Shown: in pieces, positions 30,567 to 36,040 of the stretch
Numbering within the stretch: the stretch's first letter is position 1
Layout of the letters: each line of letters begins with the position of its first letter
IMG/VR virus record: IMGVR_UViG_3300035663_000001
Location: 1 to 64,000 of that record
Source: a virus
Strand: one strand, 5' to 3'
Length of the DNA stretch: 64,000 nt
The notes under the pieces: model-generated
The model's database searches: none
What the model was told of the DNA's origin: nothing
The model's input: only the letters and a program-made list of their open reading frames with translations
Position numbers and translations under genes: made by a program

Positions 30567-30602
30567 TCTGCTCGGTTCGGACTGGTAGGTTACCATATGC
30601 CA

Positions 30603-30678
30603 GGACGAAACTTACCTTCATGGGTTCACCATTCCCCGTGGAGGTAAGTCCAACCGTGAGACGGTTGCTGATGAGTCC
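30603..30678 (+). ncRNA. Type II hammerhead ribozyme
   Basis: GGAC-GAAA-stem III-GTC^-CAACCG/CGGTTG-CTGATGA-GTCC; cleavage after 30650. Confidence 0.9.
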
Positions 30679-30701
30679 AAAGTTTCAGAGGGTCACCAAG
30701 T

Positions 30702-31064
30702 ATGACGCAAACGGCAGCAGAACGGGCTTTTAGTCTGTCGATTAACAATCGACACAATCTTCAGCAACAGGTGAACGCAGGCATGACTCCAGAGCGAATT
30801 CTTAAGTTTTTGAAGCCTGCCACTGATGTTGGAATTTTTGACATGGTGACGAGCGAAGACGCACTGTTGAATTTCTTCGTGCTCGATTTCCTCGAAGTTA
30901 ACACGAATTTCTTCAAGGTAACTTCCCTCGAAGTTCCCACTGACATGGCAGTGAATTTGGTGGTGGAAGAGCTACGAAAACAAGGTTTCAGAGTAGATCG
31001 TCTCCCTGAAGAGGAGTGCACTTTGCGCATTCATTGGAAACACTTGTTCAGACGTAAAACCTGA
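30702..31064 (+). CDS. Hypothetical protein
   Basis: GAGGG RBS. Confidence 0.7.
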   Translation: MTQTAAERAFSLSINNRHNLQQQVNAGMTPERILKFLKPATDVGIFDMVTSEDALLNFFVLDFLEVNTNFFKVTSLEVPTDMAVNLVVEELRKQGFRVDRLPEEECTLRIHWKHLFRRKT

Positions 31065-31080
31065 CGGAGGCGCGTGTGAG

Positions 31081-31320
31081 ATGGAAGTCAAATCTCAAGT
31101 AGAGAGACTCATTAGTCAGTCTCTTCTGACGGGTTTCCCTCAACGATGTTCCTGGTCTCACGAGATTGAATCAGAACTTCGGTCTCAATCTCTGGTGGCC
31201 TCTCCTCCCATGATGCGCAAGCCGTGTGCGGTGGGTTCGCAACCACTGCGATTTGCGGGATTGACTCCAGACAATAAATCTTGGTGCATCTATCTTGATG
31301 CTCCGGAGGTTTCGACATGA
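31081..31320 (+). CDS. Hypothetical protein
   Basis: GGAGG RBS. Confidence 0.6.
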   Translation: MEVKSQVERLISQSLLTGFPQRCSWSHEIESELRSQSLVASPPMMRKPCAVGSQPLRFAGLTPDNKSWCIYLDAPEVST

Positions 31321-31505
31321 ATTCACACCTAACTGTGCATGACAAAGCGTGTCACATGAAGCTGTATGCTTCTTTGGGTTACATCCAATATTGGTTGGAA
31401 TCCACCGTGGGTTGGCCGGTTTCCGAAGAGGAATGGGCGCGAGCTTATGACTTCTTCTTTGCCGATCCTCATAAAGATACTCCTCCTACTTGCACCTACC
31501 TGTAG
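31317..31505 (+). CDS. Hypothetical protein, paralog of 40588..40770
   Basis: GGAGG RBS; PVSE..W..AYD motif. Confidence 0.65.
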   Translation: MNSHLTVHDKACHMKLYASLGYIQYWLESTVGWPVSEEEWARAYDFFFADPHKDTPPTCTYL

Positions 31506-31548
31506 GAGTAAAGCTTACCTGTTCGACTTGGTAGGTGACCATATACCA

Positions 31549-31623
31549 GGACGAAACCTGTCTTCTGGGTCCACCATTCCCCGTGGAGGCAGGTCCAACC
31601 GTGAGACGGTTGCTGATGAGTCC
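31549..31623 (+). ncRNA. Type II hammerhead ribozyme
   Basis: Same core; cleavage after 31595. Confidence 0.9.
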
Positions 31624-31638
31624 AAAAGAGGTAATAAG

Positions 31639-31950
31639 ATGTCTTTAGAATTAAAAGTGGGTCAGTTGTTAGATTTCCTGACTCAGTTGCTGGAATCTTC
31701 TCAAGTGGATCGACAGACAAGGATGGTGTTGAATGTGGATGGAACAGAGTATCCGCTCTCCACAACTCTTGTTAAGAGGCCATTGCATCCCCACTTGACG
31801 GTGGGTGAGTTGTTAGATTTCCTGACTCAGCAACTGGAAACCTCGAAGGTGAATCGACAGACTGGAGTGGTGTTGAATGTGGCTGGAAAAGATCATTTGC
31901 TGTCAATGACTTTTGCATCGGGCTTTTCTGCTCGGAATAAAAAGAGGTAA
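31639..31950 (+). CDS. Hypothetical protein with internal duplication
   Basis: GAGG RBS; L.VG.LLDFLTQ.LE.S.V.RQT..VLNV.G repeated twice. Confidence 0.7.
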   Translation: MSLELKVGQLLDFLTQLLESSQVDRQTRMVLNVDGTEYPLSTTLVKRPLHPHLTVGELLDFLTQQLETSKVNRQTGVVLNVAGKDHLLSMTFASGFSARNKKR

Positions 31951-33464: not shown

Positions 33465-33790
33465 ATAAGCGGAAGCGTCAGAGTTTTTCTGGGGAAGCAA
33501 AATACGAAGAGTTAGTTCGCCGACTGAGAGGCATGATCTCGGGTCTACAAGAAGTGGGAGTTTTATCGAACAAAGATAAACCAGCCATTGAGGATTTTTA
33601 TCTAGATCCAAAACTGATGGAGGTGGATCCAGATAAGGTTGGACTGAAAATTTATTTCGGTCAATATGGGTGGTACACTACTCGTCAACTTCGGCTGATC
33701 GCTGGTGTCTTGATGGATATGGCGGATCTGTTGGATTATGCACGACAGCATAAGAATCTGTCCGAGAGACACCTATCAGGGCCTGGGTAA
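33461..33790 (+). CDS. Hypothetical protein
   Basis: GGAGG RBS, GTGA overlap. Confidence 0.6.
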   Translation: MNKRKRQSFSGEAKYEELVRRLRGMISGLQEVGVLSNKDKPAIEDFYLDPKLMEVDPDKVGLKIYFGQYGWYTTRQLRLIAGVLMDMADLLDYARQHKNLSERHLSGPG

Positions 33791-33810
33791 AAACTTATGG
33801 GAGCGAGCAC

Positions 33811-34095
33811 ATGCAGGATGATGTCTGGAAGTGTCATCTAGAAGGCAATGCGTTATTGTGGAGTTACCAAGTAACGCATGCTGACTTTTTTGCCATCTGG
33901 GATTGTGGAGCGGAGACATTGGCAGATCATGCCATGCATAAGCTGTTACGCAGTGGTCATTGTCGATCGGTGTTGGTGGAGAAGTTGTCGACAGATTCTC
34001 CGGTGGAGATGCATGTGTTCCGCTATCTCGAGGGGAAAGTGGTCTTTTCTGGAATCTTTCAGTTTCGTTTGACTTTTCGAGCCACACTGTGTTAG
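33811..34095 (+). CDS. Hypothetical protein
   Basis: GGAG RBS. Confidence 0.6.
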   Translation: MQDDVWKCHLEGNALLWSYQVTHADFFAIWDCGAETLADHAMHKLLRSGHCRSVLVEKLSTDSPVEMHVFRYLEGKVVFSGIFQFRLTFRATLC

Positions 34096-34108
34096 ACAGT
34101 TGGGTCCA

Positions 34109-34177
34109 TGGAATGGGCGTGTTACTGCGCCACTGAGAAGCTATTTAGCGAAAGAAGTGCGAATCTTCTTCATTCCA
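34109..34177 (+). ncRNA. tRNA-like element family 2, copy 1
   Basis: TGGAATG/CATTCCA closing stem, AGAAG-TGCGAAT-CTTCT T-arm-like hairpin. Confidence 0.5.
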
Positions 34178-34501
34178 CTGGCTTGGCAACGAGCCGCCAT
34201 TTTGGAACCTGGTGCAGATCCGTGCACCAGGTTGAAGCGAGATACTTTGGTTATTCTGGTGTGGAGAGAATTCAGCGTGGGCACACGTCTGACTCCCTCT
34301 GGAAGAAGCTAAAGCTATGATCGAGGGTGTAATTTAATGGGAAACTATTTAGTTACACTTACGATCATGAGTGATAGTATTAAATCATGGTGACATGATT
34401 TGATTGGATATCATTTATTTCTCTTCACCTCTCTATCCTATGCTCTTGGCCAGGAGACGCAGATCCCCGGCTGCACTAGGTTCCAAACTTTTGGTGTGAT
34501 C

Positions 34502-35917
34502 ATGACCAACGACATCCAGCGGAAGAAAAAAGCTGTCTCTACTCAGCCAGTGATGGAAGTAGATACAGATGGTAATAAATTTTGGAAGTTGAATGGTCAA
34601 TGGCATCGAGAAGATGGTCCAGCGGTAGAATATGCTGATGGAGATAAACAATGGTGGCTTCATGATAAAAAATACACTCAAGCCGGGTGGAAGAAGAAAG
34701 TCGCTGCCATGAAGAAGAAAGCCGTCTCTACTTCTGTTTCAACTCCGAAGGTTGATGCTACTCAACCCGTGATGGAAGTAGATAAAGATGGAACTAAGCG
34801 ATGGAAGTTGAACGGTCAATTCCATCGAGAAGATGGACCAGCAGTAGTTTATGCTGATGGCCACAAAGAATGGTGGGTTCATGGCCAACGGCATCGAGAA
34901 GATGGCCCGGCCATAGAATGGCCTAATGGAGATAAATGGTGGTATCTTCACGGTCAACTCCATCGACCGGATGGTCCAGCAATAGAAAGGGCTGATGGAA
35001 GTAAAGAGTGGTGGCTTCATGGAAAAAACCATCGAGAAGATGGACCAGCGGTAGAATGGCCTCATGGTCGTAAAGATTGGGTTCTTCACGGAGAAATACT
35101 CACTCCAACCGAGTGGCAACAAAAAGTTGCGGCCATGAAGAAGAAAGCAGCCTCTACTTCAACTCCTGCTCCCAAGGTTGAGTCTACTCAACCGGTGATG
35201 GAAGTAGATAAATATGGAACTAAGATCTGGAAGTTGAATGGTCAGTTCCATCGAGAAGATGGTCCAGCAGTAGAATATACTAATGGAGATAAATTTTGGT
35301 ATTTACATGACAAATGTCATCGAGAAGATGGTCCAGCATTAGAATATGCTAATGGAACTAAAGTTTGGTGGATTCACGGAGAGATACTCACTCAAACCGA
35401 GTGGCAACAAAAAGTTGCGGCCATGAAGAAGAAAGCCGAATCTACTTCTCCTCCCAAGGTGACGACATCTCCCTCGATGATGGATCATATCAAGTCGGAT
35501 CTGTCTCAAGGGACTTTCCGAGTCGCGGCTAAGACCATTCCCAAAACCGCTCGCACGGCCCTGTTGGCTTTCTTGAAAGCCAAGAAGGCACCCAAGCATT
35601 GGTTGGTGACGGCTCAGGAAGTGATGGCCACCGAGTATGGGTTAGCCATGATTCAACAAGCTTTGGCGTGGGCTTTTCGTTATCTTCCCTCATTGCGGGA
35701 AGATGTACGTGCGCAAGCGTTAGCCAATGAATGGGCGATTGATTCTTTGGCAGTGGTAGGAAATGAAGTGATTAATGAGGGGATGGCAGTTTTGTCTCCT
35801 ATTATCGCTCAAGTGATGGAGCTTCCTGCTCCTCAAAACATTCGAGTAGTTTCTGTTTCTCAGGAGAATCTGGAGGAGACGGAAGAAGAAACAAGCGCCA
35901 AGCGGGCAGTTGCATAA
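34502..35917 (+). CDS. HREDGPA-repeat protein with shared C-terminal SDLSQGTFRVAAK domain
   Basis: Three repeat blocks with WKKKVAAMKKK linkers; start moved to MTNDIQ. Confidence 0.85.
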   Translation: MTNDIQRKKKAVSTQPVMEVDTDGNKFWKLNGQWHREDGPAVEYADGDKQWWLHDKKYTQAGWKKKVAAMKKKAVSTSVSTPKVDATQPVMEVDKDGTKRWKLNGQFHREDGPAVVYADGHKEWWVHGQRHREDGPAIEWPNGDKWWYLHGQLHRPDGPAIERADGSKEWWLHGKNHREDGPAVEWPHGRKDWVLHGEILTPTEWQQKVAAMKKKAASTSTPAPKVESTQPVMEVDKYGTKIWKLNGQFHREDGPAVEYTNGDKFWYLHDKCHREDGPALEYANGTKVWWIHGEILTQTEWQQKVAAMKKKAESTSPPKVTTSPSMMDHIKSDLSQGTFRVAAKTIPKTARTALLAFLKAKKAPKHWLVTAQEVMATEYGLAMIQQALAWAFRYLPSLREDVRAQALANEWAIDSLAVVGNEVINEGMAVLSPIIAQVMELPAPQNIRVVSVSQENLEETEEETSAKRAVA

Positions 35918-35953
35918 TCTGCCCGGTTCGGTCTGGTAGGTTACCATATACCA

Positions 35954-36028
35954 GGACGAAACCCGTTCTGACTGGCCACCATTCCTGGTCAGAGCGGGTC
36001 CAACCGTGAAGCGGTTGCTGATGAGTCC
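35954..36028 (+). ncRNA. Type II hammerhead ribozyme
   Basis: Same core with compensatory stem III changes; cleavage after 36000. Confidence 0.9.
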
Positions 36029-36040
36029 AAGGAGTAAGGG

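Follow-up and report, generated by a model that had tools for sequence, protein, structure and literature searches.

The window analysed in this work is the first 64 kb (64,000 nucleotides) of the linear 128,541-bp IMG/VR record IMGVR_UViG_3300035663_000001, whose CheckV completeness of ~28% marks it as a fragment of a huge phage. From 28.7 to ~38 kb the genes of this window are all co-directional on the plus strand, and only three junctions within the block carry an intergenic element of one paralogous family, each copy being ~104 nt long: HH1 (30575-30678), HH2 (31521-31623) and HH3 (35926-36028). A first-pass annotation had described them as type II hammerhead ribozymes that punctuate an operon. 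The unit bounds given here come from segment comparison, and a repeat search grouped the same three sites into one family with three copies of 115 nt. As had been claimed, every element is placed after a stop codon and ahead of the next ribosome-binding site (RBS): HH1 between the stop codon at 30564-30566 and an RBS at ~30687-30692 (ATG 30702), HH2 between 31503-31505 and 31626-31631 (ATG 31639), and HH3 between 35915-35917 and 36029-36034 (ATG 36041). Near-identical DNA is present in many lake-water metagenome runs according to a run look-up, which listed 13 DNA runs that cover at least half of the stretch and no RNA run; in four DNA contig runs the pieces over the hammerheads are the same as the window sequence, and none of the variants listed for those four runs falls inside HH1-HH3.

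The full hammerhead core (C3-A9, G12-A14, A15.1-U16.1 and C17) can be read directly at each of the three flagged sites, with all core nucleotides present, and its parts follow one another in a single order: GGAC-GAAA-[stem III hairpin]-GUC-[CAACCG-UGAGA/UGAAG-CGGUUG]-CUGAUGA-GUCC. In HH1, a GUUCG motif (30575-79) and a 5' hairpin (30582-30603, loop 30588-97) precede stem II, formed by GGAC at 30603-06 and GUCC at 30675-78; GAAA (30607-10) leads into stem III (30610-30649, 15 bp), whose loop at 30626-34 reads UCACCAUUC, and C17 (30650), with a predicted cut at 30650/30651, is followed by stem I (30651-67) and CUGAUGA (30668-74). HH2 has GUUCG at 31521-25, the 5' hairpin at 31528-49, GAAA at 31553-56, stem III at 31556-31594 with one bulged U and the loop CCACCAUUC at 31571-79, C17 at 31595 (predicted cut 31595/31596), stem I at 31596-31612, CUGAUGA at 31613-19 and GUCC at 31620-23. 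The corresponding parts of HH3 are GUUCG (35926-30), the 5' hairpin (35933-54), GAAA (35958-61), a 15-bp stem III (35961-35999) with the loop CCACCAUUC at 35976-84, C17 at 36000 (predicted cut 36000/36001), stem I (36001-17), CUGAUGA (36018-24) and GUCC (36025-28). The transcript ends expected earlier at 30650, 31595 and 36000 thus coincide with the cut sites predicted here. Stems I, II and III comprise 6, 4 and 15 bp, respectively. The topology is that of type II, with loops closing stems I and III and with an open stem II built from the element ends, and the core-adjacent pairs G10.1-C11.1, C1.1-G2.1 and A15.1-U16.1, present in all three copies, pass the rejection rule of Perreault et al. 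Judged by their sequence, the three sites are genuine type II hammerhead motifs.

Pattern searches and an independent model point the same way. The core pattern matched three times in the window, a number reached by none of 100 shuffles; over the complete record it gave three forward and no reverse matches, and a reversed control pattern gave none. Our own descriptor returned HH1-HH3 and one further site at 26153 as the only type II candidates, no credible type I candidate, and a single spurious type III call that overlaps HH3. For comparison, a reference collection was assembled by core pattern (42 viral loci with 45 matches and 4 metagenome loci), and a covariance model, R1, was built without the three sites from 28 non-identical type II hammerheads of 65-70 nt (27 viral, 1 metagenomic), duplicates and sequences with long stem III insertions having been dropped. 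RNAalifold recovered the canonical three-way structure from the R1 alignment, and for 13 of its 19 pairs at least one sequence has both partners exchanged. R1 scored HH3 at 62 bits (E 7.6e-13), HH2 at 56.2 bits (E 1.9e-11) and HH1 at 55.6 bits (E 2.6e-11), scores whose new information lies in the stems and the spacing, since the collecting pattern fixes GGACGAAAC, GTC and CTGATGAGTCC, words that the three sites also carry. The sole further match to R1 in the 64 kb at E <0.1 was the site at 26153-26204.

A search with the Rfam hammerhead II model had been suggested as a check, and here the two models differ: RF02276 is silent on all three sites, which R1 scores at 55.6-62 bits. No hammerhead was reported by Rfam at the gathering threshold across the window, or at E<=10 on 30000-36600, on 30560-30700 (141 nt) or on 26100-26420, and on the whole record RF02276 (Hammerhead_II, gathering cut-off 37 bits) gave only a 14.5-bit chance match at 22592-22641. 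This negative says little, because RF02276 was equally silent, at gathering score, on six IMG/VR control loci with nine textbook type II motifs between them. The model misses common phage type II hammerheads with a GGAC/GUCC stem II in the collected IMG/VR loci, many of which have a common 3' tail such as AGUUUGACU. The Rfam type II model hence misses many phage hammerheads, which annotation pipelines will under-call.

The three copies also differ from one another in an informative way. Their alignment has 30 pairs in 89 cells, and every cell holds a standard pair, compared with 24-43% pairing in slid controls. Stem III covaries, as had been noted: both partners differ in 7 of its 15 pairs and a single partner in another 4, which none of 500 shuffles reached. 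The loop of this stem is constant, CACCATTCC being found in all three copies and 8 of 9 loop positions being invariant, and the conservation of the 5' hairpin is likewise borne out (19 of 22 positions invariant). GUUCG is invariant at 5/5 positions, with variable flanks; the stem I arms are invariant at 12/12 positions, the 3' arm of stem III at only 5/14, and the flanks of the elements at 4/20 and 2/20. Between HH1 and HH3, identity amounts to 200/300 in the adjoining coding sequences, 20/38 in the stem III region, 34/36 in the 5' module and 28/30 in the 3' part. To judge from this pattern, the parts outside the stem III arms appear to be either constrained or homogenised.

The description of a family of three holds, with the addition that the window also contains a differently built fourth hammerhead at 26153-26204 on the plus strand. 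It is a compact element of 52 nt with the layout AGGC-GAAA-6 bp stem III-GUC-7 bp stem I (UAAUGGU AGGA ACCAUUA)-CUGACGA-GCCU and a predicted cut at 26175/26176, and R1 scored it at 36 bits (E 1.3e-6). This stem I is similar to the 5' hairpin of HH1-HH3. About 95 nt downstream of it, at 26297-26366, the DNA has a tRNA-like fold with a 7-bp acceptor (GUCUUCU/AGAAGAC) and a T arm (CCAGG-UUCGAUA-CCUGG) followed by C-CCA; neither ARAGORN nor Rfam made a call on this fold.

The genes that surround the three elements form a varied set. HH1 is preceded by a plus-strand gene at 28677-30566 with a TAG stop, whose 629-aa product contains two tandem nucleotidyltransferase-like modules, GGAVRERL...DIDLF and GGAVRDRI...DLDLF (GGAVRD...DxD), and a shared C-terminal domain ending AKRAVA. 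Database matches of this protein are weak only (DUF5769; phrog_1614 nucleotidyltransferase, E 1.2e-4), and the style of its motifs is that of CCA-adding enzymes and poly(A) polymerases. Between HH1 and HH2 (30702-31505, plus strand) lie three small open reading frames (ORFs) without a family match, at 30702-31064 (120 aa), 31081-31320 (79 aa) and 31317-31505 (62 aa). The segment from HH2 to HH3 (31639-35917, plus strand) holds a 103-aa ORF, a DUF7448 gene (32276-32689, E 5.7e-22), several small ORFs and an HREDGPA-repeat gene (34400/34502-35917) whose C-terminus is the shared AKRAVA domain; DUF6745 was also matched in this segment. The 103-aa ORF (31639-31950), the first gene past HH2, has an internal tandem duplication, its halves (31657-31771 and 31801-31915, 115 nt) being 78% identical. 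The first gene past HH3 (36041-36250, plus strand, 69 aa) has its RBS, AAGGAG at 36029-36034, immediately after the ribozyme.

Two of the elements, HH1 and HH3, do follow genes that end AKRAVA in a shared domain. This domain (~150 aa, FRVAAKTIPKTARTALLAF...NEWAID...) ends six otherwise differing genes in the record, some HREDGPA-repeat and some nucleotidyltransferase-like, near record positions 30563, 35914, 39371, 42218, 52675 and 54805. The link between AKRAVA and a hammerhead is not general, because only 2 of these 6 copies precede one. Four protein-database matches to the domain were obtained, two of them from the same genome, and only two proteins are relatives from outside; no relative was found in IMG/VR viral contigs. 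A hairpin spans the stop codon before HH1 (30551-30574) and before HH3 (35902-35925) and is missing before HH2; the two versions, CGAGCAG...CUGCUCG and CGGGCAG...CUGCCCG, differ by one compensatory change from A-U to G-C, and in folds the GG/UU of the following GGUUCGG can alternatively pair with CCAA just upstream.

Several further observations concern the same region. TAG ends the genes before HH1 and HH2, and two tRNAs are called by ARAGORN at 55943-56018 and 55587-55657, one an amber suppressor with anticodon CTA that carries the label Pyl and the other with anticodon ACA; read-through at 30564 would extend 26 codons into HH1, to a TAA. Intergenic spacers (22093-27147, 47203, 54882, 61563) contain CCCAGCGACTAA(G/A)TTTT... 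at least 18 times on the same strand. These copies flank a tRNA-Leu at 24287-24362, and the copy at 54882 follows a shared-domain gene, at the place where other paralogs carry a hammerhead. Just upstream of the hammerhead operon, at 28121-28150, AGGUUCGAUUCCUACUCGGGCUUUUUUUU forms a hairpin that resembles a T arm and has a U run behind it; this could be either a terminator or the last part of a tRNA-like RNA.

A simple scan of ~28.2-38 kb found no strong intrinsic terminator on the plus strand, and since the motifs lie inside a co-directional block that lacks such a terminator, segmentation of the message is their natural reading. We consider it probable that HH1-HH3 are paralogous type II self-cleaving ribozymes that cut themselves within a long plus-strand polycistronic mRNA of this huge freshwater phage. 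Each ribozyme would fold when transcription has passed the 3' strand of stem II (GUCC), and would then cut after C17 (30650, 31595 or 36000). This would leave an upstream mRNA that ends in the 15-bp stem III hairpin with a 2',3'-cyclic phosphate and a downstream mRNA that starts right at the stem I hairpin with a 5'-OH. An RBS is located 3-9 nt behind each ribozyme; therefore both products would have hairpin-protected ends, and the leader of the next gene would be defined (40-51 nt). The expected effect would be to uncouple stability and translation among the segments 28.7-30.6, 30.7-31.6, 31.6-36.0 and >36.0 kb. Both the cleavage and its effect on expression are deduced from established hammerhead chemistry and from the prophage work of 2011. 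Transcript processing was proposed there for prophage hammerhead clusters, in which multiple hammerheads flank genes, and the Agrobacterium tumefaciens trio cleaves in vivo in Escherichia coli (Perreault et al. 2011, PMC3088659); a 2019 review describes the processing of polycistronic transcripts as suggested and the purpose of bacterial and phage hammerheads as undefined (PMC6765202). The earlier proposal of mRNA segmentation or stabilisation accordingly stands as far as the genuine motifs, the co-directional block and this precedent carry it, with cleavage itself as its presumed step. As three near-identical ribozymes in one operon, with conserved extras past the catalytic motif, the locus is a clean testable case.

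The accessory parts of the elements depart from the usual type II build. In most type II hammerheads a pseudoknot forms between loop I and the 3' tail, and it is needed for fast cleavage (PMC3088659). Such a pseudoknot of >=4 pairs, a type II criterion that holds for the majority of members and not for all, is not conserved here: by eye, HH1 alone can form a 5-bp UUUCA:UGAGA helix with one G-U, and HH2 and HH3 form none, while a script that used the RNAfold triloop, and was crude even on the references, found <=3 pairs. The 5' hairpin directly adjoins the 3' strand of stem II and, as a structural model, could stack on stem II and act as a capped stem II. Pairing between the 5' and 3' flanks, as an outer stem or as masking of the RBS, was also considered; it occurs in HH2 only (UUACCU:AGGUAA), hence is not conserved, and was set aside.

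Secondary-structure prediction gives the 5' module a more direct relation to the core. ViennaRNA predicts for all three elements a helix around the 5' hairpin in which C11.1-G12-A13-A14 is paired with UUCG from the invariant GUUCG motif, and the active fold lies above the minimum by 6.7 (HH1), 4.5 (HH2) and 3.3 kcal/mol (HH3), against a median cost of 0.2 kcal/mol for 44 reference type II hammerheads folded with the same 28-nt 5' flank. G12-A13-A14 is paired in the minimum-free-energy fold of 3/3 elements here and of 1/44 references. The conserved module of GUUCG and hairpin may thus delay or gate cleavage by pairing with C11.1-G12-A13-A14 in an alternative helix, a folding-based idea that we regard as tentative and as somewhat more likely wrong than right. 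The 4-nt UUCG:CGAA complement is at chance level, being equalled by 56-66% of shuffled flanks; nearest-neighbour energies omit the tertiary structure of the hammerhead; and the three copies are not independent. In addition, no enrichment of anti-core complementarity was found upstream of the reference type II hammerheads (3.64 versus 3.47). If the module does gate cleavage, these elements would be natural regulated hammerheads, so far mostly an engineering concept.

The same features could be taken to mean that the elements do not cleave at all and are structured intergenic repeats, such as 3' stabilisers, pause sites or protein-binding sites, in which the core is a relic. The absence of the usual pseudoknot between stem I and the tail, the masking of the catalytic GAA in all three predicted minimum-free-energy folds and a long stem III with an invariant loop, which resembles a binding site by itself, are all in keeping with that explanation. 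Against it, the core and the core-adjacent pairs are perfect in all three copies while the stem III arms have diverged (20/38 between HH1 and HH3), and the independent model scores the elements on a par with bona fide phage hammerheads; we therefore judge a relic core to be unlikely. Self-cleavage of HH1-HH3 remains the preferred explanation, and several points weigh against it. Without a conserved pseudoknot, the elements need not be active at physiological Mg2+. Covariation supports stem III only, stems I and II showing no variation among the three paralogs. The evidence on the accessory parts comes from three paralogs in one genome, where gene conversion could mimic purifying selection. A further and weak point is the silence of RF02276 on HH1-HH3, in a model that also misses 9/9 controls.

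A further property of the elements is the relation of their loops to the HREDGPA genes. The first-pass annotation had pointed out that loop III is complementary to GAATGGTG, frequent in HREDGPA mRNAs, and had allowed for coincidence. The complementarity is real: GAATGGTG occurs 43 times in all, three occurrences being the hammerheads' own complement and 40 lying outside the hammerheads, and it encodes E-W-W at the junction of a 23-aa repeat. The invariant loops might accordingly serve as antisense or kissing sites for the mRNAs of the HREDGPA family (~45+ members), such that the RNA ends regulate the family or the family mRNA modulates cleavage. In these terms, loop III, CACCAUUC, is antisense to GAAUGGUG (the E-W-W of the repeat) in the 40 copies outside the hammerheads, and CCACCAUU scores 57; the loop of the 5' hairpin, UUACCAUA, is antisense to UAUGGUAA, mostly at gene ends of the form ...KALW-stop, and its target TATGGTAA has 51 occurrences apart from the hammerheads. 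For HH1 and HH3, the observed counts were reached by 0.2-3.4% of shuffled or random loops, and only 146 canonical 8-mers have a count >=40 in the record.

These figures must be set against the fact that the test was made post hoc, after the data had been seen. The two loops are not independent, because both matches hinge on ACCAU versus AUGGU, which is very common here (AUGGU at 762 sites, from the Trp and Gly codons of the repeat). The hairpin loop of HH2 has a U-to-G change and scores only 12, a value reached by 30% of random loops, and loops of 9-10 nt would be sterically strained by pairing over 8-9 nt. We regard the match as a post hoc statistical hint in the sequence, a lead only, and a regulatory role for it as improbable, even though such a role would be compatible with self-cleavage as the best explanation. 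The two ideas can be joined into gated, RNA-responsive hammerheads, in which GUUCG on the catalytic CGAA would be the off state of a bistable 5' module, with UGGUA pairing to either of two tandem UACCA/UGCCA sites, and in which loops complementary to two sequences of the ~45+-gene HREDGPA family, GAAUGGUGG at the repeat junction and UUAUGGUAA at the gene end, would couple cleavage of the operon to expression of that family, or would let the RNA ends of the operon regulate it. This combination is very unlikely in our estimate; if it were true, it would represent a natural hammerhead linked to RNAs in trans.

It had also been suggested that the segments between the ribozymes have ends compatible with circularisation by an RtcB-type ligase. 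According to this proposal, the segments 30651-31595 (945 nt) and 31596-36000 (4405 nt) would be excised and closed, by such a ligase or by the reverse reaction, into exonuclease-resistant mRNAs. By established hammerhead chemistry the ends are suitable, and with the same core and the same stems I and II in the three copies, the ends of an excised segment could rebuild a complete nicked hammerhead. The argument nevertheless would hold for any two like hammerheads and says nothing particular about this locus. A search for RtcB in the 128 kb record, which covers ~28% of the genome, gave no match, and Perreault et al., who looked for spliced or circular RNA from the prophage clusters, saw neither (PMC3088659). 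With generic end chemistry and a negative precedent, this part of the annotation is not upheld, and we regard circular products as highly improbable.

Relatives of the subfamily were sought in several sets of contigs by exact patterns, by which diverged relatives may be missed. Most exact-pattern scans of viral contigs gave no match, and one gave a locus that is not a hammerhead. A looser scan of viral contigs gave at least 114 loci, none of those listed being a hammerhead with this loop and one being an unrelated hammerhead; the scan of metagenome contigs gave 4 loci, all of them unrelated type II hammerheads; and that of genome contigs gave at least 120 loci with no hammerhead among the matches listed, one of which has CTGANGA nearby and no stems. 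In 32 viral loci with DUF7448 homologues (505 kb), R1 had no match at E<=0.01. Within these scans, no second genome with this accessory architecture was found. A non-exhaustive literature search returned no description of the 5' module or of the loop, and the supplements of PMC3088659 (Dataset S1, Figures S4-S6) may hold similar variants. The type of element and its intergenic phage setting are of a known kind, clusters having been described in 2011. What is unusual is the accessory architecture: no tail pseudoknot, an abutting 5' module able in the predicted folds to mask the core, and a 15-bp stem III with an invariant loop.

Compared with known systems, HH1-HH3 share with the type II hammerheads of bacteria, archaea and prophages (PMC3088659; RF02276) an identical core, capped stems I and III, an open stem II and a location in intergenic phage DNA. 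They lack a conserved pseudoknot between loop I and the tail, and they have a GUUCG and hairpin module that abuts the 3' strand of stem II. In contrast to the 28 type II hammerheads of R1 (65-70 nt), with their short stem III of 9 modelled pairs, the elements here have a stem III of 15 bp with a 9-nt loop. RiboJ is a synthetic insulator that was engineered from a satellite-RNA hammerhead and is placed before the RBS. HH1-HH3 resemble it in the position of a hammerhead directly upstream of an RBS and in a short, defined, hairpin-capped leader, here a predicted one, and differ from it in being natural, of type II and equipped with extra conserved modules. The prophage clusters, such as the A. 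tumefaciens trio around ardA, likewise place several ribozymes within a few kb on one strand among varied genes (PMC3088659), whereas the present cluster belongs to a huge uncultured lake phage, and two of its three ribozymes follow paralogous shared-domain genes. As in viroids, satellites and retrozymes (PMC7761336), direct-repeat hammerheads could free unit-length ligatable RNA; those systems are small non-coding or retroelement RNAs for which circles have been demonstrated, whereas the segments delimited by HH1-HH3 would be 0.9 and 4.4 kb of ordinary phage genes.

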